This document shows, piece after piece, positions 1 to 25,000 of a stretch of DNA of 42,187 bases. Below the pieces are notes generated by a model. It searched no databases and was not told the origin of the DNA. It was given only the letters and a program-made list of their open reading frames with translations. Within the stretch, counting starts at the first letter, position 1; the number at the start of each line of letters is the position of its first letter. The position numbers and the translations under genes were made by a program. Source of the DNA: Puniceicoccales bacterium. Lineage in GTDB: Bacteria > Verrucomicrobiota > Verrucomicrobiia > Opitutales > JAIRLG01. The stretch spans positions 1 through 42,187 of the forward strand of contig JAITIW010000048.1 of NCBI GenBank assembly GCA_031279255.1. Reading direction: 5' to 3'.

Positions 1-125
1 ATTCTTGGCAAAAGAATCTGTTGACATATAAAAGTCCGGTCAATCCTAAAATGTTAAGTTTTTTATATGACTGTTTTTATTTTTGTTTTATTTCGCCCAA
101 AAGACAGATTTTCATGCCCTTGAGA
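1..125. repeat. Inverted repeat, left copy (partner 11623-11747); may extend beyond the window start
   Basis: 1-125 is the reverse complement of 11623-11747 with one mismatch (CGCCCAAAAG vs CGCCCCAAAG). Confidence 0.95.
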
Positions 126-153
126 CTTTCTCCATCGCCGTACTCGACTGTTT

Positions 154-236
154 TCGGCTGCCTTTGGATCTCTTCGAGATCGCCCGCGAAGCGGGCTACA
201 GCCGGCCCCAGAGGGGCAGGCTGCAAAGGCAGCCGA
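154..236. repeat. Cloverleaf palindromic element, copy A
   Basis: 13-bp closing stem TCGGCTGCCTTTG/CAAAGGCAGCCGA enclosing three hairpins: GATCTC-TTC-GAGATC, GCCCGC-GAA-GCGGGC, CAGCCGGCCCC-AGA-GGGGCAGGCTG. Confidence 0.9.
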
Positions 237-310
237 TGGATGAAACCTACGGGTAAGCTCCCGACAAGACATTTCTCAGCATCACTCCCATAGCCATCGA
301 TCGGCAAATC

Positions 311-412
311 TACCGCCTTTGAGCCCTTTGGGCTCTTGCCCGCTACGCGGGCAGCGCTAAGAGAAAAAATGCAAAGCAAGAGCTTTCATTTTTTCCTATC
401 GCAAAGGCGGTA
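311..412. repeat. Cloverleaf palindromic element, copy B
   Basis: Closing stem TACCGCCTTTG/CAAAGGCGGTA; hairpins GAGCCC-TTT-GGGCTC, TGCCCGC-TAC-GCGGGCA and a long imperfect AT-rich third arm. Confidence 0.85.
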
Positions 413-604
413 AAAGGAGGCGAGTCCTCCAAAAAGGAAAGTGAATCCTTCTAACATCTAAGAAAAACACACTACTCGAGTAAAACTATTTAAATACCAC
501 TCCAACAGAGACAGCAAAATAGAGACAAACAACATTCATCGACCCACGAACACTTTTCTCTTGTCAAAAAAAATCCGGCTTTCAGGATGGGAAAGTATGG
601 CAAT

Positions 605-681
605 GCGCCTCTAGCTCAATTGGATAGAGCATCTGACTACGGATCAGAAGGTTGCAGGTTCAACTCCTGCGAGGCGTGCCA
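605..681 (+). tRNA. tRNA-Arg(ACG)
   Basis: Acceptor stem GCGCCTC/GAGGCGT, anticodon arm TCTGA-CT-ACG-GA-TCAGA, GGTTCAA T-loop, encoded CCA. Confidence 0.97.
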
Positions 682-761
682 ATGGGAGGAGATAGTTCCT
701 GTCGTTTTGCGGTTGTCTAAGTTTAAAAAAAACTTCGGTCGCCGTGACGACAATAGAGAAG

Positions 762-837
762 GGGGCCGTAGCTCAATTGGGAGAGCGCCACAATGGCATT
801 GTGGAGGTCGTCGGTTCGATCCCGATCGGCTCCACCA
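762..837 (+). tRNA. tRNA-Ala(GGC)
   Basis: GGGGCCG/CGGCTCC acceptor with G3:U70, anticodon arm CCACA-AT-GGC-AT-TGTGG, GGTTCGA, CCA end. Confidence 0.97.
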
Positions 838-1145
838 GGTTAAATCATCCGATCCGCTGCTGCGCTTTCGGATCGCATTGAAGATAGAGAAAGAGACCGA
901 GATGGGCGGATCAGGACGACGTTGGACTTTCGAGCTAGGCCAGAACCACATTGGACTTTCAAGCTAAATCAAAGAAAGATACAAGAAGATAAAAATAGCA
1001 GAAAATCTTGAGTACGCTGAAGCTGAGATATCCAACAGAGGCTTGTGCTGAATCTTTAGTGAAGCCTAAAGTACTTCTAAACTTCTGATAAAGATTATTT
1101 TATGACTGCAATCGCTGTAAAATACAGAATTTTCGGATATATATT

Positions 1146-1359
1146 AGTAGGATTTTTAAAAATCCTACTTTAAAACTGAAAGGAAATTTCAAAGCAATAC
1201 TTTAGTTTTTTTTGAAGAAATTTCAAAGTATAATTTTAGTTTTGCGATGATTTTCCGAAGTTCTACTTTAGTTTTGAAAGGAAATTTCAAAATAGTGCTT
1301 TACTTTTGGAAAGAAAAACTAAAATGTTGCTTTAAATTCGGAAGGATTTTTCAAAGTAG
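1146..1359. repeat. Perfect 24-bp palindrome followed by six degenerate ~32-bp tandem units
   Basis: AGTAGGATTTTTAAAAATCCTACT at 1146-1169; units start at 1166, 1198, 1232, 1264, 1296 and 1328, consensus about TRCTTTAnwwTTGRAAGGAwwTTTCAAAR. Confidence 0.8.
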
Positions 1360-1369
1360 TACCTATAAA

Positions 1370-2569
1370 ATGGACGAGATAAAAATATTCAGACGTCTTT
1401 TGCCGCCGTCGCTCAATTCCTTTTTCCTCTTCGGGCCGAGGGGGACGGGAAAGACTCTATGGCTAAAGCAGACATTTCCCGACGCGCTCAAAATTGACCT
1501 CCTCCAACCTGAGAATGCGCGGCTTTACAGCGCTAATCCGGAGCGCTTGCGGGACCTGACACTCGGGCGCCTGGTCACACAGCCGTCGCCGGTCGTCGTC
1601 ATTGATGAAATTCAGAGAGTACCTCAGCTGCTCGACGTCATCCACAGTCTTCATGAAAGCCATCCGCAGGTACAGTTCATCATGACCGGATCGAGCGCAC
1701 GGAAAATACGACGGCAGGACGTCAACCTCCTCGGCGGCAGGGCTTCTTGGCGTACCATGCATCCCTTTCTGGCGGCCGAAATGGGGCCGCAATTCCAGCT
1801 CTCTCAGGCACTACAATATGGCATGCTACCTGTCATCTGGGGACAAAGGCACCCAGCCGATGCTCTAAAGTCCTACGTCGGCACCTACCTCGAGGAGAAG
1901 GTCAAGCATGAGGGATTTTTCCGACATGTCGAACCCTTCGCTCGCTTCCTGTCCATTGCTTCTTTTTCGCATGGAAGCATACCCAATGCAACTTACATCG
2001 CTCGAGAATGCGGCGTATCGCAACCTACTGCCCAAACTTATTTTGAGATTCTGAAGGATCTCCTGATCAGCTTCCATGTCCCTCTTTTCTCAAAACGGGC
2101 GAAGCGGGTACTCATCAGCGCCAATAGGATGAAATTTTACTACGCTGATACCGGTATCTACCGGACTCTACGCCCCAAAGGTACTTTTGATCGACCGGAA
2201 GAAATCGAAGGACTTTGCCTCGAAGGCCTTGTGGCACAGCACCTGAGGGCCTGGTGCGACTATTTCGGTGACGGAACGAAATTATACTACTGGCGTACCA
2301 AAGCCGGAGTAGAAGTCGATTTCGTCCTCGACAGCCCCAACGGACTGTGGGCCATCGAGGTCAAGCACAGCGACGTCGTGCGGCGGGAGCATCTAAGCGG
2401 CCTACGTGCCTTTGGAAAGGACTATCCGGAAGCGCAACAGCTTTTCATCTACCGCGGCCACGAGACACTTGTCGTCGATTCCATCCTCTGTCTTCCCTGC
2501 GAAGATTTTTTGCGACAACTCAAAGGCCCGACTTTTTTAAAAATCGAGCCTTCCTTCACTTACCCTTAG
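1370..2569 (+). CDS. AAA+ ATPase (AAA_14-like) with C-terminal DUF4143 / PD-(D/E)xK nuclease-like domain
   Basis: Walker A GPRGTGKT, Walker B VVIDEIQ, TGSS motif, C-terminal YWRT..EVDFV..AIEVK. Start moved to ATG 1370 because the ORF-track extension translates the repeat array. Confidence 0.9.
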   Translation: MDEIKIFRRLLPPSLNSFFLFGPRGTGKTLWLKQTFPDALKIDLLQPENARLYSANPERLRDLTLGRLVTQPSPVVVIDEIQRVPQLLDVIHSLHESHPQVQFIMTGSSARKIRRQDVNLLGGRASWRTMHPFLAAEMGPQFQLSQALQYGMLPVIWGQRHPADALKSYVGTYLEEKVKHEGFFRHVEPFARFLSIASFSHGSIPNATYIARECGVSQPTAQTYFEILKDLLISFHVPLFSKRAKRVLISANRMKFYYADTGIYRTLRPKGTFDRPEEIEGLCLEGLVAQHLRAWCDYFGDGTKLYYWRTKAGVEVDFVLDSPNGLWAIEVKHSDVVRREHLSGLRAFGKDYPEAQQLFIYRGHETLVVDSILCLPCEDFLRQLKGPTFLKIEPSFTYP

Positions 2570-2588
2570 CGAATGTATTTATCGCTCT

Positions 2589-3537
2589 CTAGAAAGATAC
2601 CGTCATACGAGCGCCGAGCCATGCGATGGATTTATGATTCGTGAGGTAATTGGCCAAGTTGTTATTCGAAACATGTTTGCTATTGGAATTGATATTATAG
2701 TGGATGCCAATAGCCGACTCCACATGTCCATTCGGACAGAAGCATAATTCAAAAGTACCACCGGCATAAGCATAACGATTTTTCTCACTCGTGAGGTTAC
2801 GAATCTCCAATGGCATCCCATTAATCTTTTGAATATTGCCCAATTTCCCCGTAAAGAAGCGCTTTGCGCGGACATATCCGCCATTTACCTGAGTAGCTAT
2901 TTTTAACAAAGGTATACCTATACGTGCCAAATCGAAGCCATAATCCACCTTTCCTTCTAGCGTATAGGCTTTGCAACGGATATCATAATAGGCAAAAACC
3001 GAAGGCGTAACAGGCTCGAAGCATTTACAAATCACACCGGCTCCGAATTCCCAAATATCATCACGCGTATCATAACCATTCTGATCGTCACGCCAGTAAT
3101 GGATATACTTGGCATTCGCGTCCAATATCCAATCATCGTTCAGTAAGTAGCGCAGACCAAATTGCGTCCGCGTCTCATCGAAATCGAGCGTCAAGGCACC
3201 TCCTTCTGGTTTTGTCTGAATGGGAACGCTGAGAAACGTATCGATATAAAGTTCATACTTCCCCAACGGCAGAGCAAAAGCATGCTCCGTTTGCAAACAA
3301 CGTTTACAGCGCTCATATCCGCGATAAAAATATCGCTGATTGTATAGGATAGAACCCTCATAATTGGATAGAACCCTCATAATTCCACCGAGCACAGAAG
3401 TCCTCGATGCACTTAAAGCCGTGACATTTTTGATGACCATCGGCGCAACTATCACCTGCACAGCCACACCCAGCCGTTCCTCCCCATAAAGCCGAGCAAC
3501 AGGCCCACATTGATATACCAATTCCAACACGTCTCAT
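2589..3537 (-). pseudogene. Outer-membrane beta-barrel protein gene (Gcw_chp/TIGR02001-like), frameshifted by a 19-bp tandem duplication
   Basis: ATG 3537 with G-rich RBS gives signal-like MRRVGIGISMWACCSALWG and stops at 3360-3358. Removing one copy of the 19-mer restores a 309-aa frame with YFYRG motif, aromatic-rich strands and C-terminal Phe. Confidence 0.75.
3347..3384. repeat. Perfect 2 x 19-bp tandem duplication
   Basis: GGATAGAACCCTCATAATT at 3347-3365 and 3366-3384. Confidence 0.97.
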
Positions 3538-3898
3538 CCAACCCCCCTAGTAAAGTAGGATTCTAAAACAGGAGTTTTATCCTGTCAATGCGAAATTTAC
3601 AATTTTTTTACAAAGTTCTTTTACAAAAAAATAGATTTTCTCCAAAATGACATTAAGACGTCCCCAATTGCAAATGAAGGATACTCATATGAGTAAGCGT
3701 TAACGGTTTGACGCTTGTCAAACGACGAAATTCTTCTGTCGATAAATCTTTTAAACTCAAATATCTCATACTTTTTTCTCTAAACAACTATCTCTTTATA
3801 TCACTTATTTTTCGTTTCGAAGGAAGTCTGGTGAACGACCCAAGATAAAGCCATCAAGAGAAGATAGCATCTCATCTTAAGCTCTTTTTTCAAAAATC

Positions 3899-4789
3899 TC
3901 AAAGCTGTGCCTCTGCCTGTCGACGTATCTCTTCATATCGTTCCGGTAAAGGTTCTAACCCGATCATTTCCGGCAAAAAGCCGAGCTGTATGAGGGAAAA
4001 CCGGATGATAAAATAAAAATCGGCTCGCAAATTTCCCACGTTATATCGCCAACGCCAGCATTGTTGTCCCTGAAAAGTTCTCCAATGCACCCATTTGAAT
4101 TCTCCAGAACCCAACCATTCCTCATAATCTTGAGCAAATGCTAGACAAGCACGTATCCCTAATCTCATACCTTTATGAGGGGAATCAGCTCGCAACTCTT
4201 TCAAACTTTTAATGCAACTTTGACACCCTTTTGTAGCGTCTTCTAACGCAGCCCGTATCCGAAAATAACGTACTTCGCATTCTTCTCTCAGGGTTTCACC
4301 GTAAAGCTCATACTCCTGACTACCAGGAGGTGTTGGAATAAAGCCCGATTGCCGCAATAAAGAACGCAGATCTGACAAACGCTTGGATATTTCAAAAAAC
4401 AAATCAAAAGCAAAAACCAAACCATCCAGATAAAGATTATCCCCAAGCCATTGATGCCAATAATGAATCAGATCGTCTATGGGTAACAAATATACCCACT
4501 GCCATACACGCGTCTTATCAGCGTCATTCCAACGTCCCTTTGGTGCTTCTCGAAACACATAATCGAGCTTTTGCAGCCAAAGGGCCACATACTCGGAAAA
4601 TTGATTTCTCAAGCAAAGATCAAGAGGATAATACGGGTAATATTCATGAGAGACTTGTCCGTTCAGTATCTCCGCCATGGCCTCATGATCGCCTAATACA
4701 GATATATCTTCTTCCGTTAATTCCGCCGAGGTATTGGTGCTCCAAACCATCGCTGTTGTTAACAATATTCCTACACGATTCATTTTCAT
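3899..4789 (-). CDS. Hypothetical exported protein
   Basis: 296-aa ORF with signal-peptide-like start MKMNRVGILLTTAMVWSTNTSA-E; no family recognised. Confidence 0.75.
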   Translation of the reverse strand: MKMNRVGILLTTAMVWSTNTSAELTEEDISVLGDHEAMAEILNGQVSHEYYPYYPLDLCLRNQFSEYVALWLQKLDYVFREAPKGRWNDADKTRVWQWVYLLPIDDLIHYWHQWLGDNLYLDGLVFAFDLFFEISKRLSDLRSLLRQSGFIPTPPGSQEYELYGETLREECEVRYFRIRAALEDATKGCQSCIKSLKELRADSPHKGMRLGIRACLAFAQDYEEWLGSGEFKWVHWRTFQGQQCWRWRYNVGNLRADFYFIIRFSLIQLGFLPEMIGLEPLPERYEEIRRQAEAQL

Positions 4790-4829
4790 ATTTTTATAAA
4801 CTTCGCGTAAAATAATACTGAGATATGAG

Positions 4830-4866
4830 ACATTATTTTTACAATTAATAATTGTAAAAATAATGT
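4830..4866. promoter_or_regulatory. Perfect 18-bp inverted repeat with 1-nt spacer (possible operator or cruciform)
   Basis: ACATTATTTTTACAATTA-A-TAATTGTAAAAATAATGT, 40 bp upstream of the 4789 start codon; function is inferred. Confidence 0.5.
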
Positions 4867-5158
4867 AAATACTTGGTCATTCACATTAAACTCACCATTC
4901 GCCCCAATATTCTCTACGAAAAAATTCCCAACGACGAGATATAGTGCCCGATGGCTAAAATTTCATGATATCCTCCTCATGGACATTATCGTTTGCCTTT
5001 TGAGTAAAAACCCATAGAATCCTTCTTTGGGACTCAACGGGATGAAAAATGATAAGCGTCGCGCTGAATTGGCAGGGTGTATATAGCTCCTTTTAGCCGG
5101 AAACTAAGGTGTTTTTCATATTCCATGGCGGTAAAACAAAAAATCCATAAACAACATT

Positions 5159-5182
5159 AAAAAAGCCTCTAAAATAAGAGGC
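5159..5182 (-). terminator. Rho-independent terminator
   Basis: Stem GCCTCT/AGAGGC with 6-nt loop followed by T6 on the minus strand, ~70 nt after the stop at 5252. Confidence 0.65.
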
Positions 5183-5251
5183 AATTGATTTAAAAATAGT
5201 AAAGATACGCCATCTTTGTTAAAAACAGGCTCAGTAACTTAGTCATTCATA

Positions 5252-7054
5252 TCATCGAGTCAGCTTTTCTTGACATTTTTGAGCGAACTCACGATCACCT
5301 TCTCTTTCAGCTGCTTGGGCGTAATCGGATAGCACTTCACGATCAAAATCCCATGGAGCTCTTGGAACATCCAGCTCTCGGATCGCGCGGTAGACGCGTT
5401 CACAATTACCTTCATCTCGAAAGACAAAAGTTTGTTGCATACACTCAAGGTACTTTTGCTCTGGTTGACACTCATTTTGTAGTAAAGTTTCGAGTGCTTG
5501 AAATAATTTATCTCTAGTCCCGACGACAGGGCCAAATCCGTCTCGTAAATAGTCGAAATATCCACTCTGGTAGGTATGAGCACCTTGGGTCGTAACATTA
5601 TCAAACTGATAATAAATCACGGGACGCCTGAGCAAAGCCATCTCGAAGGCCGTCGATGAGTAATCGGTAATCATCACAGCTGATTCTAGAAAAACGTCTT
5701 GTATACTTCGGTTAAAACAAGTCACCTTTTCAATGCCTGGCAGTGTCCATTTACTTAAAAATTTACGCATAAGAGAGTGCGGGAAGAATATGATGCGGTA
5801 ACTGTATTTTTGAGCTAAGGCCGTCAGGCTTTTATCAGTTAAAAAGCCATTCCATTTTTCAAAATAATTCGTCCCTTGGAATGTCTTAAACATCTGATCA
5901 GCATTTTTTATTCCATCTGTTACGTCTTTGACATGTTTCCGCCATGTGGGCATGATTAAAATAGCCTTTTCAGGAAGTTTTTTGCCTTTGTTTTTTTTAG
6001 AAAACTCTCCGACTCTTCTGGCAAAATCTTTGGCATATCTCTGATTATCAGAACACCCCGGGTTGAGGTAACGATGCAATAAAGTATCATGGCGCGGAAG
6101 CCCCAGCATTTTCCCATGTGCCGGAAGAGTCTTGTAAGGCGTACCCTTACCGACGATACTATTGAATTCAGTGAATGTCGTGGTCACAAACAAATCCATT
6201 TCTTTGCCGTTAATCCATTCCGACATATCGTCTTTAATAACACCATGCTGCAAAAAGATGAAATGCTTAAAGCGCAAGAAATCAGGTCCGTAGCGTATCT
6301 TGAGCGCTTCAGCTGATTGCGACGAGATAATCTTCGAAGCTTTGTCGAGAATGGCCCTACAATCGTCAGCCACAAGCGCAGGCTTCTGGTCTTGTTTTAT
6401 CTCTTGTTTTAGGGCCAATAATTGAAATCCTTCTTTTGAAAGTTTGTTCCAGTAGGAATTGTCTTTACCATCGCCACCCATCTTGTTGATGGTGAAGTAG
6501 GGCGTAACATCACGTGAATGTTGTGTTCTTAGGAAACGATAAAAATGTTCGGCATTATCATCTCCTTCCGTACTGCGGTCTAGCAAAAGCCAAACATTCG
6601 CATTTTGTTCCGGATATTTTTCTCGCTTCAATCTTTCATAACGCGTCACGACATCTGGAATGTCGAAAACGTCTCTCAACGTTTCATTACCAAAAACATC
6701 TTTAAAATAACATGTCGTGCGGTTTACTTTAGCGGTCATACTTTTTACTCTTTCATAAGACACCAGCATATCGATAGCTTCTTGAGACCGTCCATCTTCA
6801 AGCTTGACGATATACTTTTTCTGAAAAAGAGGAGCAATTCTTTGGCCGTCTACTAAGATATTAAAGGTGTCTGGTAACCCTCTCGGGGTGAGAGGGAAAT
6901 AAGGATGGGGAAATTCCGAAATAGTGAAAAAAATTTCAGATTTGGCTGTGTCTACTTTTTGACAGCAAAAAACAGGAATAGCCGATAGTGAAGTTCCTAA
7001 GACTATCGACGCGCATAACGATAAAAATATCTGTTTTAGTTTTGTTTGATTCAT
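5252..7054 (-). CDS. CDP-glycerol glycerophosphotransferase family (TagF/TagB-like) protein with N-terminal signal-like sequence
   Basis: Motifs DDNAEHFY, FLQHGVIKDD, GLPRHD, IMPTWR, ITDYSS..FE, PVIYYQFD. GGAGGT RBS at 7066-7061 supports start at 7054. Confidence 0.9.
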   Translation of the reverse strand: MNQTKLKQIFLSLCASIVLGTSLSAIPVFCCQKVDTAKSEIFFTISEFPHPYFPLTPRGLPDTFNILVDGQRIAPLFQKKYIVKLEDGRSQEAIDMLVSYERVKSMTAKVNRTTCYFKDVFGNETLRDVFDIPDVVTRYERLKREKYPEQNANVWLLLDRSTEGDDNAEHFYRFLRTQHSRDVTPYFTINKMGGDGKDNSYWNKLSKEGFQLLALKQEIKQDQKPALVADDCRAILDKASKIISSQSAEALKIRYGPDFLRFKHFIFLQHGVIKDDMSEWINGKEMDLFVTTTFTEFNSIVGKGTPYKTLPAHGKMLGLPRHDTLLHRYLNPGCSDNQRYAKDFARRVGEFSKKNKGKKLPEKAILIMPTWRKHVKDVTDGIKNADQMFKTFQGTNYFEKWNGFLTDKSLTALAQKYSYRIIFFPHSLMRKFLSKWTLPGIEKVTCFNRSIQDVFLESAVMITDYSSTAFEMALLRRPVIYYQFDNVTTQGAHTYQSGYFDYLRDGFGPVVGTRDKLFQALETLLQNECQPEQKYLECMQQTFVFRDEGNCERVYRAIRELDVPRAPWDFDREVLSDYAQAAEREGDREFAQKCQEKLTR

Positions 7055-7193
7055 ATCCATACCTCCATTATAGTAGCCCCAGCAAACTGGAGTCGGCAGG
7101 CAATATAGAAAATTACTTACTTGAGTCAAATACATTCGGGCTCGCTTTTAAGAGGAAAAAGTCTAAATTAGGGAAATAACTTGGGATTGGTAT

Positions 7194-10100
7194 ATGGATA
7201 TTAGAAAAGCAATTGGATTGGATGAGAATGGTGCGCGCATAGCGATTTCAGAGGATAAAACACTGGTGGAATACATCAAACTGCGCCTCATGGCGATGGG
7301 ACAAGCGCTGGAGATGGAAGAAGATGATCCCTATACTGTGAGCCGGATCGCTGCGCCGATTTTTGCCAATGCTCAAGCCTTCCGACGACTCTTGGCTCAT
7401 TATCGCTCTCCGGTCGACACGAGGATTACGCAATTCCTCGACCGCTTTTTAGCCGATATTCCAGAAGCCGATCGGCATGAATGGCTCCCATTGCAGACAT
7501 TCGAAACCGATCGTTATGGTATGGCACGTATTCTGGCCTTACCTCTCGATGGCGATGAGTATCATTCGGAATACATCGATTCCTATCGCGTCGTGCAAGG
7601 GATCTTGCACAATCCGAAAGTCGACAAGCGAACAACAAAAGATGTCTTCCACATCGTTGAAGGCGGGCCTGTCGTACCGGATGACAAGATAGAGGTGCCG
7701 AAAATTGCCTTTGCGCGGCTCTTGAAAGCGGCCTGCCATCCGCCGCAGGAGCTTCTGGAGCTTCCCTTTACCGCCAATCAACGGCGTAAGGCCTACAGCT
7801 TTGTCTCCAGCTATCTCCGGCCGGTCGTCTGCCCAGAAGTTTCTGGATTTTGCCACGAGAAATATATGGAAATTCGTTTCTTCGCACCCGGATCGTTGGT
7901 CAACTTCATCGACTGCGTCGAGAGCATTTTCGGAACCGCCGGCTCTTCTTCTCTCCCTGAAAATAATGCCGCTCTAGATCCCGACGGCTGGACAGGTCAT
8001 ACGGGTTGTATCCTCATCGCACCGCATCTGACACAACTCAAGAAGAAAGATCTTGGATTACCCAACATTTCTCAGGCGACGGAACGACAGAAGCGCGATG
8101 GCATGTGCTGGTCCGATGAACATGAGCGCTATCACGACGGTCGACCGTTTAAAATCATGGCACGTACCTTAGAGGGTGTCATCGTCTCCATCATAGCCGA
8201 CAGTTATAATGGCTACGGCAAGAAGGAGATCAAAACCCACATCAGCTATTCCGCCAATCTCTATGGGCAGTGCGAAGAGGAACATTCCGGTGGGACATTG
8301 GCCTTTGCTTCCTACGATCTCGGCGATGAGTTTCGGCTCACGCGGATCGAGACATCACCCCATACCTTCGCCCAATTATTGAAGACACATACTCATTCCT
8401 TAATACCGCAGCCCGAGGGCTACGCGATTGATCAACATTATGACGATATTTTCTACGTTCCGGAAGATGCTCTTTTTACGCTTCAACCACTGGCTGTCCG
8501 CTGGAATCAGCACGGTCAAGAAGTTTCTATCCCACTACAGCCTGAGAAAACCTACATTCTGCCCTCTGGATATAGGGTCGAACTTATCGCACCGACTCAC
8601 GGTAGCTATGATCGCTGGCGCCTCGTCGGGACACGAGGTGAATGCGTCTTTTGCCACAAGCCGTCGACGGTATCAGGTGGCGGCAAGTCAGAAATTGCCA
8701 GTCCCATTGCGGACAACATCACGACCGGTACAGTACTCGTCGAAGACCTGCAGGAGGATTTTAGGCAATTGGAGGCCATACTGCAGCATGACCTCTCGCG
8801 GCGTTACCGTCATCCCGAAAAGGAAGAACTTCCGATACTGGATCCACGGCGTTCCCTGGGGTCCGTCATCAAGATGTTCCATCCGCATAAGGATTACAGC
8901 GATGAACATAATCAATGGATCACATCGCTACCACCCTATTTAAAAGATCTGCTCTTTGTCCTAAAAGCCTATTACAGACCCTCCTGGGGCAAGGATTGGC
9001 CGCATTATTTCTCGGTCGATGCGATCAATGGCCATTCCGGTTATACATTAAAATACCTCGAAACGCCACTCATCGCCCGCTATCTGCGAGTGGGCTCAAC
9101 CCATCGCCAATCCGGACGTCTCTTTACACTTCGCCAAGATTTCTATCCGGCCTGCAAATGGCAGATGGAAGACGACATTACTGCTTCGGTTGTCGTGCCC
9201 ATAGATTCACTTTCCGGTCTCAATGCCGAGGGTCATCCTTCGGTTAAGTTCGTCAGCAATATCGAATACCGTCTCTACCAACGTCCTGACGAGGCGATTG
9301 TTCCGGGATATGATCATAAATCGGAATACGCCATGACACTACCCGAGACATTTACGTGCAATCTGCATCCCATTACACGAGAAGAGGCACGCATCATGGT
9401 AGCCGACAGCATTGCCTTTTCCCGCTATACCGAACCGATGCAACATCTTTTAAAGACATTCGCAGAGCAAACCGATGGTCCTCGATTCGCCGCCTGTCCT
9501 TCCGTCCGACGGCGCATGTCCCATAATACCTTCAGCACCAATCCGCGCTACCTCGAAGATCGAGAAGACCTGACGCAGGCACGAAAGGCCTACCTCCTCC
9601 GTACTTCCACATGCCTTGCGCGACAGCTCTCCGAAGATCAGGCTATCCACTATAGTGTTCAGGCCGTCATTTCCGGCCGGCGCAATAATCCTCCGGAAGA
9701 AAATATCGCGCCGCTTTCCGTTCACAATCCGCTTCATTATCTCGAACTACCGGAGCTTTTTATGGAATATGCCTCTAACATGACCGGGAAATCTCCCTCG
9801 ACGACGGGTAGTGGACTCGAAGGCGTCATGACCAAACGACCTTTCAATGGCCTGAGTACGATCACCGATCTCAACAATGCCCTGACCAGTTTCCTGCTGA
9901 CTGGTTATCAAGGCTTTGTATCCTCGGCTGGCTTTCTGGGGCCTCATCATCCCATAGGCCATGATGTGACTTATCTCATACCGGAGATATGGTGCCGCAT
10001 GTCGGCCGAAGAACGCGATGCTTCGTTTCTCATAGAACACGGTTACCTGGAGCCCTGTTGTGATTTCATACACGAAGGCCACTGTGTCGAAGCTAGTCGC

Positions 10101-10655
10101 CTGGGATACCGCATCACGGATCATTTTGTCAAAACATTCGCCGGACGTATTTTCTCAAGTCCAGAGACACTCTTTACGGAAGAAATGCTACGACCAGAAT
10201 TACAGGACAGGGACATTTTTTCCCAAAGCATGGCGAATATCGTCGATGCCCATCGGAGAGCCGCCGAGATCTTTTTTCACGATGGCTCCATTGAGGGCGC
10301 CTGTCCGCCACTCCGAGCACTACTGGAAATCATGGCTTTTGGAGAATCGGATGGATTACAACGTTCCTCGCCGGAATTCCGAAAAATGTTCGATCCTTCG
10401 ACGATACGTTCGCAAGAATGGTACCAGCAACGGCTGGAAGCTTTTCGTCGGCAACAGATCCGCCACTGGGAACGCTGTCATCGCGAAGTCAAGGCATGCT
10501 GCGATAAGTCCTATTCCGATGGGAATGAGCCCGACATAACGGCCTCAACTTCTCAGCGCCTCGCTGCCATTGAGGAACAACTTCAACGACTTCAGGCTCA
10601 AGACGCGACATTCTTTCAAGGTTGCCTCGGCCTCGATCCCTATGTCTGTCCGTAA
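7194..10655 (+). CDS. PPi-dependent phosphoenolpyruvate carboxykinase (PEP carboxytransphosphorylase)
   Basis: 1153 aa; motifs LHNP..DKRTT..VFHI.EGG, RFFAPGSLV, ISYSANLYG.CEEEHSGG, CHKPSTVSGGGKSEI, GKSPSTTG recalled as typical of PPi-PEPCK. Confidence 0.85.
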   Translation: MDIRKAIGLDENGARIAISEDKTLVEYIKLRLMAMGQALEMEEDDPYTVSRIAAPIFANAQAFRRLLAHYRSPVDTRITQFLDRFLADIPEADRHEWLPLQTFETDRYGMARILALPLDGDEYHSEYIDSYRVVQGILHNPKVDKRTTKDVFHIVEGGPVVPDDKIEVPKIAFARLLKAACHPPQELLELPFTANQRRKAYSFVSSYLRPVVCPEVSGFCHEKYMEIRFFAPGSLVNFIDCVESIFGTAGSSSLPENNAALDPDGWTGHTGCILIAPHLTQLKKKDLGLPNISQATERQKRDGMCWSDEHERYHDGRPFKIMARTLEGVIVSIIADSYNGYGKKEIKTHISYSANLYGQCEEEHSGGTLAFASYDLGDEFRLTRIETSPHTFAQLLKTHTHSLIPQPEGYAIDQHYDDIFYVPEDALFTLQPLAVRWNQHGQEVSIPLQPEKTYILPSGYRVELIAPTHGSYDRWRLVGTRGECVFCHKPSTVSGGGKSEIASPIADNITTGTVLVEDLQEDFRQLEAILQHDLSRRYRHPEKEELPILDPRRSLGSVIKMFHPHKDYSDEHNQWITSLPPYLKDLLFVLKAYYRPSWGKDWPHYFSVDAINGHSGYTLKYLETPLIARYLRVGSTHRQSGRLFTLRQDFYPACKWQMEDDITASVVVPIDSLSGLNAEGHPSVKFVSNIEYRLYQRPDEAIVPGYDHKSEYAMTLPETFTCNLHPITREEARIMVADSIAFSRYTEPMQHLLKTFAEQTDGPRFAACPSVRRRMSHNTFSTNPRYLEDREDLTQARKAYLLRTSTCLARQLSEDQAIHYSVQAVISGRRNNPPEENIAPLSVHNPLHYLELPELFMEYASNMTGKSPSTTGSGLEGVMTKRPFNGLSTITDLNNALTSFLLTGYQGFVSSAGFLGPHHPIGHDVTYLIPEIWCRMSAEERDASFLIEHGYLEPCCDFIHEGHCVEASRLGYRITDHFVKTFAGRIFSSPETLFTEEMLRPELQDRDIFSQSMANIVDAHRRAAEIFFHDGSIEGACPPLRALLEIMAFGESDGLQRSSPEFRKMFDPSTIRSQEWYQQRLEAFRRQQIRHWERCHREVKACCDKSYSDGNEPDITASTSQRLAAIEEQLQRLQAQDATFFQGCLGLDPYVCP

Positions 10656-11048
10656 TGGGACGATGAAATTCGCTCAGGAAAGATAATCAGAAGTTTCTTC
10701 TACGGTTGGAGAGAAATTCGACTCCGACACTGACTGAAGCGGCAAAGCTGCCGGTCGCTGGCCGACGTCCGTAGGAAGCGGCATTGGGTATTGGGCCGAA
10801 TGTCCGTTTGTCTGTTTTGTCGAGTGACTCATAAATCCGCTGGTCGAGCGTCGACGGTCGTGAGAAGTGGCCACTGAATATTTCATCGGATATCCATTGG
10901 AGATGATATGGAGAAGTCTTATCGAGTGTCGAAGTCTTATCGGGAGTCCATTCGTCTGTTTCGTTGAGTAGGCCATTCTGTCAGTTTTGCCAAATATTTC
11001 ATCTGCCGGTTCTTTTGAGTGGATGTGTTCTGTCCGGTAGCTCCGGTC

Positions 11049-11131
11049 TCGGCTGCCTTTGCAGCAGGCCCTGAAAGGGCCCGCTGTGGCCCGCTTCGCG
11101 GGCGATCTCGAAGAGATCCAAAGGCAGCGGA
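11049..11131. repeat. Cloverleaf palindromic element, copy C (inverted relative to A)
   Basis: Reverse complement matches 154-236 at 73 of 83 positions; pairing of the third arm is retained. Confidence 0.9.
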
Positions 11132-11270
11132 AGAAAACGGCCAAGTTCAGCAGAAAAAACAGCAGAATCCAGCGAAAGGAAAGGCAGCAGTAGAAAACGG
11201 TCGGAATTAACAGAGGGAAAAGAAGGAAATGATGAGATGTAGCCAAACCTGAGTCTAACAGAAAGAAAGA

Positions 11271-11589
11271 GAGAGAAAGCAACGGACCACAGCATCGGCA
11301 GATTTCGGTGGACAGATTTTGGCGCTGGAGGAAAATTTTCCTTAGGGGCTTAGGTGGTGTCACCAAATGAAAAGGTGGACAAAGAGAAAAGAGAAGAAGA
11401 CGGAGGAAATGGACAAAAAGGCACATAGGAAATATGACCTATCAGATGAATTGTGGAATAAGGCGAAAAGATTGCTGCCTGGTTTGACGACACCATCTAG
11501 CAGAGGAAAAATAACAGGGTGTGGCCAATTTCCATGGAGAGAACGCAACGGGCCACGACATCGGTAGATTTCGACGAACAGATCTTGAC
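11271..11589 (+). repeat. Pair of degenerate 53-bp direct repeats (11271-11323 and 11537-11589)
   Basis: 43 of 53 identical without gaps (GAGAGAAxGCAACGGxCCAC..CATCGGxAGATTTCG..GxACAGATxTTGxC). Confidence 0.8.
11353..11497 (+). mobile_element. Internally deleted IS5-family element (MITE-like), 145 bp
   Basis: 15-bp imperfect terminal IRs (GGTGGTGTCACCAAA / TTTGACGACACCATC, 12 of 15), TA on both flanks, and RBS plus ATG 11409 encoding MDKKAHRKYDLSDELWNKAKRLLPG, like IS5 transposase N-termini. Confidence 0.7.
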
Positions 11590-11622
11590 TGATAGGAGAA
11601 AAGAACGATAAGGAAAGAATGT

Positions 11623-11747
11623 TCTCAAGGGCATGAAAATCTGTCTTTGGGGCGAAATAAAACAAAAATAAAAACAGTCATATAAAAAACTTAACATTTT
11701 AGGATTGACCGGACTTTTATATGTCAACAGATTCTTTTGCCAAGAAT
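11623..11747. repeat. Inverted repeat, right copy (partner 1-125)
   Basis: 124 of 125 identical to the reverse complement of 1-125. Confidence 0.95.
11705..11733 (+). promoter_or_regulatory. Candidate sigma70 promoter for the tRNA-Thr-tuf operon
   Basis: TTGACC-N17-CAGATT preceded by an A/T-rich UP-like tract, ~55 nt before tRNA-Thr; the -10 is non-consensus. Confidence 0.4.
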
Positions 11748-11789
11748 GGTTGTCGCTGGAGTTCAGCGAGAAAGTGGACTGTATTCGTT

Positions 11790-11865
<76 letters not shown>

Positions 11866-11899
11866 GGGTGAATCTTTTATCAATTATTGAAGAGAACAA

Positions 11900-13090
11900 A
11901 TGGCTAAAGAAACCTTCGCTAGAACGAAGCCGCACGTCAATGTCGGCACAATTGGTCACGTCGACCATGGTAAGTCGACGTTAACGACCGCTATTCTCAA
12001 AGTCCAATCGGACAAGGGGTTGGCGGAATTCAAGTCTTACGCGGATGTGACGAAGGGAGGGACGATCCGTGATGCTTCCAAGACCGTCACGATCGCGGTT
12101 TCCCACGTGGAATATGAGAGTGATGGACGTCATTATGCACACGTCGATTGCCCAGGGCATGCTGATTTCGTCAAGAACATGATCACGGGTGCGGCCCAGA
12201 TGGATGGCGCCATCCTCGTCGTCAGTGCCGCCGATGGTCCGATGCCTCAAACGCGCGAACACATCTTATTGGCTCGCCAAGTAGGCATTCCGAATCTCGT
12301 CGTATTTCTCAACAAGGTCGATCTTTTGGATGATCCGGAGCTGCTCGATTTAGTCGAGATGGAGATCCGCGATCTTCTCAATAAATATGACTATAATGGT
12401 GATAAGATCGTCATTGTACGCGGTTCAGCCCTAGCGGCCCTAGAAGGACGTCCGGAGGGCATCGAGGCAATTAACAAATTATTAGCGGCATTGGATAGGG
12501 AGATCGACGAGCCGAACCGTGATATAGATAGGCCATTCTTAATGTCGGTAGAGGACGTGTTTTCCATAACCGGTCGCGGGACGGTGGCCACAGGCCGCAT
12601 TGAACGCGGCGTGATTAAGGTCGGCGAAGAGGTGGAAATTATCGGTTTGGGGGATACGCGCAAGACGACCTGTACGGGTATCGAAATGTTCCGCAAGCTG
12701 CTCGATGAGGGTCGAGCAGGAGATAATGTCGGTATTCTGTTACGCGGTGTCGATAAAAAGGACGTGGAACGCGGTCATGTATTAGCTAAACCAGGGACGA
12801 TCACGCCGCATTCTAAGGCGAAAGCTGAGATTTATGTCCTGACGAAGGAGGAAGGAGGACGCCATACGCCCTTCTTTCAGGGTTATCGGCCGCAATTTTT
12901 CTTCGGAACAGCCGATGTCACCGGTGTGGTACAGCTTCCTGCCGAAACAGAAATGGTCATGCCAGGGGATAACCTAGGTGTCATAGTGGACTTACAAAAA
13001 AAGATCGCGATGGAAAAAGGCCAGCGTTTTGCGATTCGCGAAGGAGGACATACTATCGGCGCTGGGCGTATTACGGAAGTAGTATTCTAG
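11900..13090 (+). CDS. tuf: Elongation factor Tu
   Basis: [29 protein letters not shown] motifs. Confidence 0.99.
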
Positions 13091-13146
13091 GTTGAAAGTA
13101 GAGGGAAATTCGCGTAGTTCTTCAAATATTTTATCTTTGTGTATGT

Positions 13147-13222
<76 letters not shown>

Positions 13223-13267
13223 TATGTCAGCAGGAAACGGTTAAAAGACGTAGCAAACAAGAGCATT

Positions 13268-13483
13268 ATGAAGTGGTTAGCGAGAGTGCGTAATTTTTGT
13301 GGAGAGACGGTGACGGAGCTGCGAAAGGCTTCCTGGCCGGATAAAAAGGAATTGTCACAATCCATTGTTGTTGTCCTCGTGGGTATGCTGATCTTGGGTG
13401 CTTTTGTCAGTGTCTCCGATTTCGCACTGTATGAAGTAGTGGACCTTCTGAGCACATGGGTAAGAGGTCGTTTGGGAACTTGA
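13268..13483 (+). CDS. secE: Preprotein translocase subunit SecE
   Basis: ELRKASWP motif plus one TM helix; located between tRNA-Trp and nusG; start at ATG 13268. Confidence 0.93.
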   Translation: MKWLARVRNFCGETVTELRKASWPDKKELSQSIVVVLVGMLILGAFVSVSDFALYEVVDLLSTWVRGRLGT

Positions 13484-13490
13484 TCATCGC

Positions 13491-14060
13491 ATGACACATC
13501 TCTCGACACATGAGCCGCAATGGTATGCGTTGCAGGTTTTATCGAACCAAGAAATGAAGATCAAGGCATGCTTGGATCATATCGTAGATCCTGCAGGATG
13601 TCATGGCATTTATGAAGTGCTCGTGCCCATGGAAAAAATAATAGAGATTAAGAACGGTAAGAAATCACATCGACATAAAAAGCTCTATCCGGGCTATGTC
13701 TTTGTCCATGCGCAGCTCTATGACGACGCGGGACAAGTCTGGCAAGAGCCATGGCAACTGATTCGCAGAACTCAAGGAGTGGTAGGCTTTGTGGGTGGTG
13801 AAAAACCCGTTGCCTTGAAATCTCATGAGATCGAGCGGATTCAAGGACAGATCAAGGCATCGGAGGACAATCCCTTACCGAAGTCGGCTTTCACACTGGG
13901 CGATAAGGTCAAGATTCAGGAAGGTCCTTTTATCAATTCCATAGGACAAATAGAGGCCATCGACAATGAGAATGGAAAATTAACAATTTCAGTCTTGCTA
14001 TTTGGTCGTTCAACGCCAGTTGAAGCAGAGTTCGGTCAAGTAGGGCCGGTAGAAGAATGA
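13491..14060 (+). CDS. nusG: Transcription termination/antitermination factor NusG
   Basis: WYALQV, YPGYVFV, KOW region GPF..FGRSTPVE. Confidence 0.98.
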   Translation: MTHLSTHEPQWYALQVLSNQEMKIKACLDHIVDPAGCHGIYEVLVPMEKIIEIKNGKKSHRHKKLYPGYVFVHAQLYDDAGQVWQEPWQLIRRTQGVVGFVGGEKPVALKSHEIERIQGQIKASEDNPLPKSAFTLGDKVKIQEGPFINSIGQIEAIDNENGKLTISVLLFGRSTPVEAEFGQVGPVEE

Positions 14061-14075
14061 TAGGGCTCAAATATT

Positions 14076-14501
14076 ATGGCGAAGAAAGTCATCCACAAGA
14101 TTAAGTTACAGCTACCAGCTGCGGCGGCCAATCCCGCTCCCCCTGTAGGGCCAGCTTTAGGTGCGGCAGGTGTGAATATCATGGCTTTCTGTAAAGAATT
14201 CAACGCTCGGACAAAGGATCAGGCCGGGATGATCATTCCCGCTGTAATTTCGGTCTATGCTGATCGTTCTTTTTCTTTTGAATTGAAATCACCACCAGCA
14301 GCAGTTCTATTGCGGAAAGCGGCTGGGGTTCCCAAAGGTTCTGGAGTACCGAATCGAGATAAAGTAGGGAAAGTCACGCGGAAACAGGTCATGGAAATCG
14401 TAGCCTTGAAGGCATCTGACCTCAATGCGGAGAGTCAAGAAGCAGCGACTCGTATGATAGAAGGAACGGCGCGCAGCATGGGTATCGAAATCAGTGCCTG
14501 A
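14076..14501 (+). CDS. rplK: 50S ribosomal protein L11
   Basis: [21 protein letters not shown]. Confidence 0.99.
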
Positions 14502-14520
14502 GCAACATGAATGAATCGTT

Positions 14521-15234
14521 ATGAAAGTACAGAGTAAACATCAGCGCAAGGCACAGGAATTGGTGGATTTAAAGCAGTATTTTTCTGTAGAGGCTGCGCT
14601 TGAATGCCTGGGAAAAATGCCAAAGGCTCGTTTCGATGAGACAGTGGAACTTTCGATTCATCTGGGTGTCGATCCCAAATTGAGTGATCAAATGGTTCGT
14701 GGAATGGTGCGTTTGCCCCATGGGAGTGGTAAAGTGGTACGGATTGTCGCCTTTACGGAATCTCCGGAAGAGGCATTAGCGGCTGGTGCGGAAGTGGCAG
14801 GGCTCGATGATGTGATGCAGCGAGTACAGGACGGGTGGATGGATTTTGATGTGGCCGTTGCGACGACATCGGCCATGAAGCAAGTTCGGACGATTGCACG
14901 TATTTTAGGCCCGCGTGGTCTGATGCCCAGCCCAAAATCAGGAACAGTATCCGATGATTTGGTATCGGTGATTCAGGACGTCAAGGCCGGACGGGTTGAA
15001 TTTAAGATGGATAAAACAGCTAATATGGCCGTTGTCGTAGGGAAGCGATCGTTGTCGAGAGAATATTTATGGGATAATATCAAAGCGGCCATAGAGGCGG
15101 TATGCCATGCTCGACCGGAAGCCTTTCGGGGTCGTTTTATCCATAACATGGTTCTAAGCGCCACCATGACTCCCGGAATCCGGTTAGATTCGCAGGAATA
15201 TTTGAAGATGGATACGAAAGGAAATCAGCAATGA
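14521..15234 (+). CDS. rplA: 50S ribosomal protein L1
   Basis: FDETVE, LGPRGLMP.PK.GTV. Confidence 0.99.
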   Translation: MKVQSKHQRKAQELVDLKQYFSVEAALECLGKMPKARFDETVELSIHLGVDPKLSDQMVRGMVRLPHGSGKVVRIVAFTESPEEALAAGAEVAGLDDVMQRVQDGWMDFDVAVATTSAMKQVRTIARILGPRGLMPSPKSGTVSDDLVSVIQDVKAGRVEFKMDKTANMAVVVGKRSLSREYLWDNIKAAIEAVCHARPEAFRGRFIHNMVLSATMTPGIRLDSQEYLKMDTKGNQQ

Positions 15235-15737
15235 GAGCGGAGAAAAGTTTACTGGTTCGCGAAACGGTGACGTATTTGCAGGATTCAGGCTATGTCTATT
15301 TGGTAGATTTTTCTCGTATCCGCGTAGAGGAAGTTGAGGAATTGCGAAAAATATTAAAGGCAGAAGGGGCTGTCTTTCATGTCGTCAAAAATACCATCCT
15401 GCAGTTGGCGGCGAATGAATTACCTTTGCCAGATTTTAAGCAAATTTTATCGGGCCCTACGGCGATTGTGGCCGGTGGTTGTAATCCTTCCAGCGTAGCC
15501 AAAGCTCTCTTGCAATTCCGAAAAAAACATGACGATAAGCTGATCATCAAATGTGGTGCCTTGGCCGATCATCTTTTGAATCCGGAGGAAGTAAAAGCTC
15601 TGTCGGAATTGCCGACGTTGGACGAATTGCGGGAACGTTTCCTATCGCTTTTACAGGAATCGGCCCGTCGGATGCTATATGTGCTCCAGGCAGTTCCACA
15701 AGGTTTACTCAATGTTTTACAGGCGAAAACGCGTTAA
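15231..15737 (+). CDS. rplJ: 50S ribosomal protein L10
   Basis: VVKNT..A, GPTAI, LPTLDELR; synteny. Confidence 0.96.
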   Translation: MRAEKSLLVRETVTYLQDSGYVYLVDFSRIRVEEVEELRKILKAEGAVFHVVKNTILQLAANELPLPDFKQILSGPTAIVAGGCNPSSVAKALLQFRKKHDDKLIIKCGALADHLLNPEEVKALSELPTLDELRERFLSLLQESARRMLYVLQAVPQGLLNVLQAKTR

Positions 15738-15838
15738 GGGAAATGAATTTTTTTAATCTGAGTCGGCAGTATTTTAGGAGAATGTCTCTTAAATGATCTT
15801 GATAAAAGGGGTCGCTAAAATGCTCCAAGGAGGAAACT

Positions 15839-16222
15839 ATGGCAGATATCACAAAAGAACAAGTTATCGATTGGTTGAGTAACCAGTCTGTATTGGAGAT
15901 CGCTTCTCTCGTAAAGGATTTGGAAGCGAAATGGGGCGTCAGTGCAGCGGCTCCGGTTGCGGTGGCAGCGGCGGCAGTGGCAGCCGCTCCGGCGGAAGCC
16001 GTCGAGGAAAAGACGGAGTTCAGCATCACTCTTACGGCAATTGGAGATAATAAGATCAATGTCATCAAGGAGATCCGTGCCATCACAGGTCTTGGACTAA
16101 AGGAGGCAAAAGATCTCGTAGAGGCCGCTCCTAAACCTGTGAAAGAAGGGATTTCCAAAGCAGAAGTAGAGGAGATTAAGCAGAAGTTAGAGGCCGTGGG
16201 AGCTAAAGTCGAAGTGAAGTAA
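15839..16222 (+). CDS. rplL: 50S ribosomal protein L7/L12
   Basis: Ala-rich hinge, [18 protein letters not shown]. Confidence 0.99.
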
Positions 16223-16385
16223 AATCGAGATCTTTCGACCATTGATTGTGTTTTTAAGATCTGGATTCATCCTGTTACCATCTGGACAATGTGGAGAACG
16301 TTTGCGAAAACTTTCTCGGTTTTCTTTTTTTAAAGCGAGACCTCCGCTTTTTGAAATGAGGTGATGAGTTGTGTCCTTTATTGCT

Positions 16386-24333: not shown

Positions 24334-24421
24334 GCCCGCCTTTGCGATGAAAAATGAAGATTTTTATTTTTCTATCGCGGCCCGCAAAGCGGGCAAGGGT
24401 CCGAAGGGCCCAAAGGCGGGC
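24334..24421. repeat. Cloverleaf palindromic element, copy D (inverted relative to B)
   Basis: Closing stem GCCCGCCTTTG/CAAAGGCGGGC; AT-rich arm, GCCCGC-AAA-GCGGGC, GGGTCC-GAA-GGGCCC. Confidence 0.85.
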
Positions 24422-24604: not shown

Positions 24605-25000
24605 ATGCCTACCATCAATCAATTAGTTCATAAGCCTCGTGTGCAGGTCGTAGTTAAATCGAAATCTCCGGCCTTAGGGTCGAATCCTTTTCGCCGAGGG
24701 GTCTGTGTGCAGGTCATGACGCGTACGCCGAAAAAGCCGAATTCCGCCATTCGCAAGGTGGCCAAAGTGCGCCTGACGCATGGTGGCGATGAGGTCATTG
24801 CCTATATCCCGGATGAAGGTCATAAGCTGCAGGAGCATAGTGTTGTATTGGTTCGCGGCGGCCGAGTGAAGGATTTACCGGGTGTGCGCTACCATATTGT
24901 TCGGGGCACATTGGATTGTTCCGGTGTGGAAAAACGCCGCCGCAGTCGTTCCAAGTATGGGGTCAAGCGTCCTAAGGAAGCCAAGAAAAAGGATTCATAA
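24605..25000 (+). CDS. rpsL: 30S ribosomal protein S12
   Basis: [26 protein letters not shown]. Confidence 0.99.

Follow-up and report, generated by a model that had tools for sequence, protein, structure and literature searches.

Cloverleaf repeats with a four-way-junction fold: a new family of interspersed nested palindromes in small Puniceicoccales genomes

Four short stretches of nested inverted repeats lie between the genes of a contig from a Puniceicoccales bacterium, and they raise the question of what kind of element they are and whether they act as DNA or as RNA. A sequence-only reading of this contig (GenBank assembly GCA_031279255.1, contig JAITIW010000048.1, positions 1 to 42,187; the whole of this stretch is called the window here) had described four copies, A–D, with one fold and divergent sequences, and had proposed either a single-stranded DNA or cruciform element mobilised in trans or a structured RNA. 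Here, we analyse these copies together with the source genome (G000) and three sister species of the same genus (G001, G002 and G003). We find that the copies are part of a genuine and new family of nested palindromes dispersed through the genome, denoted the cloverleaf. It is most like REPs and MITEs, lacks features that define each of them, and has an unusual four-way-junction design.

Copy A (154..236, + strand) belongs to a subfamily with a GC-rich arm 3. Its outer stem pairs 154–166 with 224–236 and encloses arm 1 (167–181, GATCTC-TTC-GAGATC), arm 2 (182–196, GCCCGC-GAA-GCGGGC), a 2-nt linker and arm 3 (199–223); the DNA fold has a z-score of −7.70, and the covariance model described below matches 148–241 (E = 2.3e-15). 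Copy B (311..412, + strand) belongs to the main subfamily, in which arm 3 is AT-rich, and comprises the outer stem (311–320 with 403–412), arm 1 (321–335), arm 2 (337–353) and arm 3 (354–402, with one bulged C; z = −7.53; model match 303–419, E = 1.6e-24). Copy C (11049..11131, − strand) is an inverted paralogue of A, to which it is 88% complementary, and on the − strand its outer stem encloses arm 1 (11118–11104), arm 2 (11103–11089) and arm 3 (11086–11062), as supported by the DNA fold (z = −6.31), the inverted repeat and the covariance model (E = 3.5e-14). Copy D (24334..24421, − strand) has an AT-rich arm 3 and one G–T pair in arm 1 (z = −5.91; model E = 5.0e-18). It occupies the spacer between a 1,376-aa ORF (ending at 24305 and, from gene order, read as rpoC) and the following ORF at 24605; the same spacer holds a copy in the same orientation in G003 and none in G002.

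These results confirm all four copies where the earlier description had placed them, together with the covarying stems quoted for them. The pattern GCCTTTG-N(40–70)-CAAAGGC has three matches in the window (A, C and D; 0.01 expected), and GCCCGC-NNN-GCGGGC has four exact matches (0.15 expected), numbers reached in none of 100 shuffles in either case; the outer core of copy B spans 94 nt, beyond the N(40–70) spacing, and was recovered by another search. The architecture is shared, as claimed: folded as single-stranded DNA, each copy forms an outer stem and three hairpins at −30.2 to −39.2 kcal/mol (z = −5.9 to −7.7), with 0 of 200 shuffles as good. The cores that had been called invariant are so within the window, but genome-wide the outer core varies (GTCTTTG/CAAAGAC, GGCTTTG/CAAAGCC, TTTT/AAAA, TTC/GAA), always with compensation. 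Likewise, the four intergenic copies are real but stand for a family of roughly 110 in the genome. C and D are the same element as A and B on the opposite strand, which corrects the earlier description, and the four do form one family, but A and C are not independent: with a 125-nt inverted repeat they are part of a diverged inverted segmental duplication.

This 125-nt repeat (1–125 versus 11623–11747, 99% complementary) brackets an 11.5-kb segment with two tRNA genes and several ORFs. Its first arm forms the opening bases of the contig, and its second arm, which bears a promoter-like TTGACA...TAAAAT, lies upstream of tRNA-Thr and a 396-aa ORF at 11900. The repeat could mark a segment that inverts, stem from duplication of a promoter, or be an artefact of the assembly edge.

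The window is one whole contig of an 885,323-base assembly in 68 contigs, and as this assembly is 93.6% complete with 0% contamination, the genome is truly small. An nhmmer profile found 111 distinct loci in G000, 105 of them near full length, and an exact regular expression gave 64 matches, one of which is a chance match within an ORF; the family therein amounts to about 110 intergenic copies, four of them in the window. We built a covariance model from 64 copies, namely the four of the window and 60 of the 102 full-length copies outside it, taken at even score steps. A scan with such a model had been suggested with the original description, and it recovered many more copies in G000 and also detected the family in all sister genomes. 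In G000 it returned 143 matches, the weak ones being opposite-strand echoes of strong ones, with four loci that were new. Together the copies of G000 make up 11.3 kb (1.3% of the genome), and the family takes up 1.3–1.7% of genomes smaller than 0.9 Mb; G003 (90% complete, 20 contigs) carries about 130 copies. The same-genus sisters G000 and G003 are similar in genome size and differ in GC content (46% versus 57%).

The distribution of the family is narrow. The covariance model matches all four genomes of the one genus, each of 0.8–0.9 Mb, and none of 147 other genomes of the order, which span 40 other families. In a search covering one genome per species, the exact pattern was found at at least 114 loci, and 78 of the 80 loci listed lie in three Puniceicoccales MAGs; the other two listed, from Anaerolineae and Planctomycetia, lack the cloverleaf fold and were discarded as chance matches. 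Sequences related at 85–95% identity occur in termite gut metagenome runs of one study and in one run of a second study. A loosened CTTTG...CAAAG pattern found at least 119 stretches in metagenomes, and the covariance model matched none of the 80 examined. Searches with blastn of plasmid and phage collections gave no cloverleaf match, and viral contigs gave none either. That the element was not recognised as a named family in the sequence-only reading is borne out for Rfam: at the gathering threshold Rfam 15 finds four tRNAs in the window and nothing else, and with E up to 1 it finds no match in 120–450.

The cloverleaf has a median length of 99 bp (range 77–129 bp) and a uniform architecture. 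The minimum-energy fold has the outer stem with three arms, neither more nor fewer, in 104 of 105 copies of G000 and in 128 of 128 of G003, so that in 232 of 233 near-full-length copies an outer stem closes three hairpins at a four-way junction. The outer stem has 9–19 perfect pairs with a mode of 13 (208 of the 233 copies parsed). Arms 1 and 2 each end in a 3-nt loop, on helices of 6 bp and 6–7 bp, respectively, and arm 3, whose loop is 3 or 4 nt long, has a median helix length of 20 bp in G000 and 17 bp in G003. The junction is tight, with linkers mostly of 0 nt on either side of the outer stem and of 0–2 nt between the arms, and an almost invariant TTT/AAA step lies directly at its crossover. 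Two helices are conserved in sequence in both genomes, the inner part of the outer stem (CTTTG/CAAAG) and arm 2 (GCCCGC/GCGGGC), the GC content of arm 2 staying at 0.83–0.88 in both. The sequence of arm 3 is free, and its GC content tracks that of the genome (0.44 in G000 and 0.57 in G003).

Very strong covariation bears out the proposal of a structure-constrained family. In G000, two-sided changes occur at 25 of 29 predicted pairs (64 copies). In G003, which lay outside model building, 98.3% of paired cells are complementary as against 75.3% in shuffles, and two-sided changes occur at 27 of 29 pairs in 1,009 cells, values reached by 0 of 500 shuffles, in an alignment that was fitted to the covariance model and includes some opposite-strand echoes and mutually related copies; since copies within a genome are related, the shuffle controls overstate the significance. 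One-sided changes are rare beside the 1,009 two-sided ones, and slid controls pair at 38.5–47.5%. Comparison of copies that share a spacer in G000 and G003 reveals compensated changes for each of the helices.

Several observations bear on the level, DNA or RNA, at which this fold is maintained. In tandem gene contexts the element is oriented with transcription in 28 of 57 cases (G000) and 30 of 74 (G003). G:U pairs are scarce (0.2–3.7% of pairs per arm) and number 59 in the sense and 51 in the antisense fold in G000, and 44 and 45 in G003, with equal folding energies. Most triloops are GNA or the complementary TNC (15 and 57 of 101 in G000, 40 and 45 of 115 in G003), and the reverse form ANG is absent from the triloops listed. 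The loops of arm 2 come as reverse-complement pairs (TGC 25 and GCA 5, TAC 24 and GTA 6, TTC 6 and GAA 4), the asymmetric arm 3 tip, bulge and loop included, is found either way round (33 versus 16), and the arms flip independently of one another (16/16/9/12, p = 0.78). The strand with the GNA loops shows no signal relative to the coding strand (20 of 41 and 25 of 51 copies) or to the G-rich strand given by GC skew (41 of 76 and 46 of 87). Strand symmetry and the inversion of loops and arms are marks of inverted-repeat DNA and lead us to assign the constraint to the DNA level. Of the options first offered for the element, single-stranded or cruciform DNA accordingly fits better than a structured RNA, given its orientation, G:U symmetry and loop inversions. 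Template switching between inverted repeats homogenises their arms and inverts the spacer, according to one study (PMC8604942), and makes quasipalindromes more perfect, according to another (PMC7202029). Part of the observed covariation may be mutational rather than selected.

All gene calls rest on a crude ORF caller of our own, which yields 735 ORFs and 81% coding sequence in G000. By these calls, 101 of the 111 copies of G000 overlap no ORF by more than 15 nt, and nine others touch only ORFs of 52–131 aa. One copy (contig C29, 472–574) overlaps the final 65 nt of an 803-aa ORF and thereby encodes the end of that frame. The copies are scattered among housekeeping genes in both orientations and occupy 28 of 93 convergent, 16 of 93 divergent and 56 of 473 tandem spacers in G000, and 27 of 89, 23 of 91 and 66 of 401, respectively, in G003. 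Roughly one third of spacers of at least 100 nt hold a copy, and across the spacer types of these two genomes we found no positional rule relative to genes. Copies are mostly solitary, without BIME-like clustering, and neighbours less than 400 nt apart form five pairs in G000 and two in G003.

The flanks are rich in T 5′ of the element and in A 3′ of it, T being rarest after the stem (16–27 of 208 copies at +1 to +6), and among the 208 copies parsed there is no fixed word or tetranucleotide beside the stem. Target duplications, a search for which had been proposed with the original description, do not flank the copies: direct repeats of 0, 1, 2 and 3 nt occur 147, 50, 8 and 3 times, versus 150, 45, 9.7 and 2.4 times with shuffled partners. 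Three copies in G000 (C2, 3700–3780; C24, 14845–14941; C16, 15866–15915) share an identical 3′ flank of 50–97 nt and have differing 5′ flanks, so some of the spread carried flanking DNA on one side.

Comparison of G000 with G003, which share 505 reciprocal best ORF pairs at a median identity of 69%, bears on the age of the copies. Among 335 syntenic gene pairs, a copy is present in both genomes in 33, in G000 only in 12, in G003 only in 20 and in neither in 270 (odds ratio 37), and when the comparison is restricted to spacers that retain at least 120 nt in both genomes once the element is removed, the counts are 23, 4, 9 and 33 (odds ratio 21, p = 2.6e-7); at least two of the 20 sites scored as G003 only hold G000 copies that nhmmer overlooked. 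Gain or loss is exemplified by a 144-nt spacer with a copy versus a 4-nt spacer without one. At the 33 shared sites, the orientation is the same in 22 and opposite in 11, and given these 11 the sharing of positions could in part reflect insertion preference. The partner ranks among the top 20 of 128 copies in similarity for 12 of 21 same-orientation pairs tested and for 0 of 11 opposite pairs, which are no more alike than random pairs. The shared spacers and similarity ranks indicate that many copies were inherited and that others were replaced or independently gained.

Within each genome, the copies have also come to resemble one another. The best within-genome match has a median identity of 0.87 in G000 and 0.79 in G003, compared with 0.58–0.72 for the parts of positional pairs between the two, which is little above random pairs, and the flanks of shared copies no longer align between the species and are as unlike as random pairs. 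Copy B is 85–92% identical to non-syntenic copies of G002, where the 3′ end of rpoC is 82% identical. That likeness within a genome exceeds likeness to the positional partner points to concerted evolution or to ongoing seeding from conserved master copies. Around a 19-kb contig with six copies, metagenome contigs of four runs break at the repeats; in the sole contig that bridges a copy there, 72 other letters stand in place of 611 nt that include the copy, and among those contigs no pair of filled and empty sites is close enough to give exact ends.

The account that we favour, with confidence that is evenly balanced, is that the cloverleaf is a REP- or MITE-like, non-autonomous family of interspersed DNA palindromes that acts at the DNA level. 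With a perfect outer stem, three hairpins and 0–2 unpaired junction bases, either strand folds into the same four-way junction, and the element would be active as a cruciform or, while the DNA is being replicated, as a folded single strand. The CTTTG/CAAAG and GCCCGC/GCGGGC helices, to judge from their conservation, are probably the recognition site of a sequence-specific factor, and in arms 1 and 3 pairing alone would be required. Selection may preserve the pairing, as may template switching between the inverted-repeat halves, in which one half would be copied from the other and the loop flipped, or the two may act together. Copies appear to be old enough to occupy the same spacers in different species, and within each genome the subfamilies of that genome would overwrite or re-seed them, by gene conversion or by a putative enzyme that transposes them in trans. 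Against this account stand the lack of a match to the transposase and recombinase families searched in G003, despite its roughly 130 copies, and the absence of a target-site duplication, a defining mark of MITEs. The retention of shared sites in genomes below 0.9 Mb and the two conserved helices would fit a host function as well or better, and the alternatives that invoke a host function, taken jointly, come close in weight to the selfish-element reading.

The first of these alternatives, possible if rather doubtful, is a domesticated DNA-level device, in which a putative host-protein binding or loading site is held by purifying selection in about a third of long spacers; a junction-binding, recombination, nucleoid or replication factor would be the candidate protein. 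It would explain why positions are common to species whose orthologues have a median identity of only 69%, why the outer-stem core and arm 2 have kept their sequence in both genomes when the flanks are no more alike than random pairs, and why strand symmetry is complete. It also accords with persistence in genomes of 0.8–0.9 Mb, with the lack of a detected transposase in G003 and with the presence of RuvC and two tyrosine recombinases in all four genomes. However, no candidate protein is tied to the element, and 12 + 20 of the 65 occupied syntenic spacers differ between the species, so single sites are dispensable. The near-identical subfamilies within a genome, moreover, suggest spreading or conversion and not the conservation of individual sites, and no positional rule against genes was found.

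Unlikely, in our assessment, is an RNA-level cis element in untranslated regions that would serve in either orientation as a 3′-end stabiliser, processing site or unconventional terminator. Its helices are self-complementary, so both orientations would yield the same stems; convergent spacers are the most occupied; and copy D lies 29 nt past the ORF read as rpoC. REPs and MITEs are moreover known to fold in RNA, as described in PMC3184786. Yet G:U pairs are rare overall and are not enriched in the transcribed sense, divergent spacers, which have no 3′ ends, are occupied all the same, and neither orientation presents a hairpin followed by a U-tract. An intrinsic terminator was rejected on flank composition and divergent-spacer occupancy. 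A generic terminator scan of window positions 1–20000 gave 18 sites versus 20.6 expected.

Quite unlikely is that the cloverleaf is a built-in Holliday junction mimic, that is, a transposase-free module recognised by junction-specific host enzymes. RuvC and tyrosine recombinases would be the candidates, and the TTT-G step at the crossover may resemble the cleavage preference of RuvC. RuvC is present in all four genomes, and tyrosine recombinases number two per genome in each of the four, with a third, shorter match in G002; none lies beside arrays. Loss of ExoVII was also considered as an explanation and ruled out, its large subunit being present in all four genomes.

The enzyme searches bear most directly on the original proposal of mobilisation in trans by an HUH enzyme, in which the cloverleafs would be REP-like substrates of a Y1 transposase of the IS200 or RAYT type that has since decayed or been lost. 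For this very unlikely reading speak eight matches to PF01797 (Y1 transposase) above the cut-off in G000, the lack of target duplication, which Y1 transposition predicts, and the composition of the element from hairpins. But all eight matches bear in-frame stops or are truncated, and they constitute an IS200-like repeat of their own, about 570 bp long, with end hairpins unlike the cloverleaf; only two of the eight lie within 2.5 kb of a cloverleaf. G001, G002 and G003, which carry the family and are 68, 83 and 90% complete, have no PF01797 match, and the cloverleafs are symmetric, without distinct left and right ends. A RAYT or TnpA(Y1) gene flanked by copies, which the sequence-only reading had named as a thing to look for, was not found in the four genomes, and a Y1 enzyme was rejected as the general mobiliser of the family. 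The relics lie at C45 (17339–17698), at C55 (1314–1610), on C9, C11 and C21, at the end of C6, at the start of C16 and on C63; two are thus at contig ends, and they show in-frame stops or 5′ deletions.

Pfam family searches recognised no intact cognate transposase of any other kind. G003 has no match to PF01797, PF01548, PF07282, PF13586, PF01609, PF00665 or PF00239, and PF04986 was silent there as well, as was its control. Short TnpB (PF07282) and IS4/IS5 DDE fragments are present in G000, G001 and G002 and absent from G003. A second repeat family of about 150 nt, found at window positions 11350–11500, gave 25 matches by blastn in G000 and numerous ones in G001 and G002, with G003 giving none; read by eye, one of its frames resembles the N terminus of an IS5-type transposase. 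Many of these IS5-like copies lie within about 0–350 nt of a cloverleaf, in no fixed arrangement.

A structured non-coding RNA gene in many copies is highly improbable: its stable, conserved and covarying fold notwithstanding, the element is unmatched in Rfam up to E = 1, exists in about 110 copies in both orientations with no strand signal of any kind, and has loop sequences that are free and inverting.

How, then, does the family relate to known repeats? A REP is one short imperfect palindrome of roughly 20–65 nt. Like REPs and BIMEs, cloverleafs are high-copy, extragenic, GC-rich palindromes that are specific to a species or genus and cause no target duplication; REPs are thought to act as DNA and RNA hairpins, and IS remnants are often adjacent to them, as the IS5-like remnant repeat is to many copies here. 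In some genera a REP hairpin has the tetranucleotide GTAG beside it, according to PMC3184786, whereas no fixed tetranucleotide adjoins the cloverleaf stem. The cloverleaf further differs in being a fixed four-helix module of 77–129 bp with a tight four-way junction, and in that its copies are mostly solitary and flank no RAYT (Y1) gene.

A target-site duplication is one of the features that define MITEs, and unlike MITEs the cloverleaf has none; its interior, too, is three independent hairpins and not one long stem. The likeness to bacterial MITEs such as Correia, ERIC, Chunjie and QMITE, as these are characterised in a defining paper (PMC3184786) and a 2024 review (PMC10969869), lies in a length of about 100–200 bp, an intergenic position, the lack of a transposase, a stable fold and terminal inverted repeats, here the perfect outer stem of 9–19 bp. 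The words 'Verrucomicrobi' and 'cloverleaf' are absent from that review. In a partial comparison, limited to the IS200-like relics as a possible parent IS, the ends differ from those of the cloverleaf. The family is set apart from IS200/IS605-type elements by its symmetry and by Y1 genes that are all broken and confined to G000.

Other resemblances are more distant. The positions of Rickettsia palindromic elements (RPEs) are shared between Rickettsia species. RPEs are likewise old palindromic repeats of a reduced, host-associated genome, and are about 150 bp long and often lie in frame within genes, as given in PMC10969869. Cloverleafs, in contrast, avoid ORFs (101 of 111) and have no sequence relation to them. 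The terminal hairpins of parvoviruses consist of an outer palindrome that encloses small internal palindromes, with the internal parts occurring in both orientations (flip and flop), which recalls the nested palindromes and two-way internal parts of the cloverleaf; however, those hairpins are the ends of linear single-stranded viral DNA, arising from hairpin transfer, whereas cloverleafs are internal chromosomal repeats without a match in phage or viral collections. Integron attC sites are recombination sites of 57–141 nt that conserve fold rather than sequence, have a variable central structure and act as folded single strands. The cloverleaf resembles them in its conserved fold and variable central structure; yet attC sites share a single orientation within cassette arrays next to an integrase, and cloverleafs are dispersed in both orientations, with the tyrosine recombinases not next to arrays.

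Interspersed palindromes such as REPs and MITEs are common, and most are single hairpins linked to a known type of transposase. What distinguishes the cloverleaf is a rigid junction design, found in the same spacers across species, with a variable arm that is rewritten to the base composition of each genome. Covariation statistics alone would class it as a structured RNA, a warning for RNA-motif discovery. If the family were indeed a Holliday junction mimic, it would spread through junction resolution or repair, or serve as a recombination or chromosome-organising site of a minimal genome. The cloverleaf offers a clean natural case in which to ask how far covariation in hairpin repeats reflects selection and how far template switching within inverted repeats, and why strongly reduced genomes keep such DNA.
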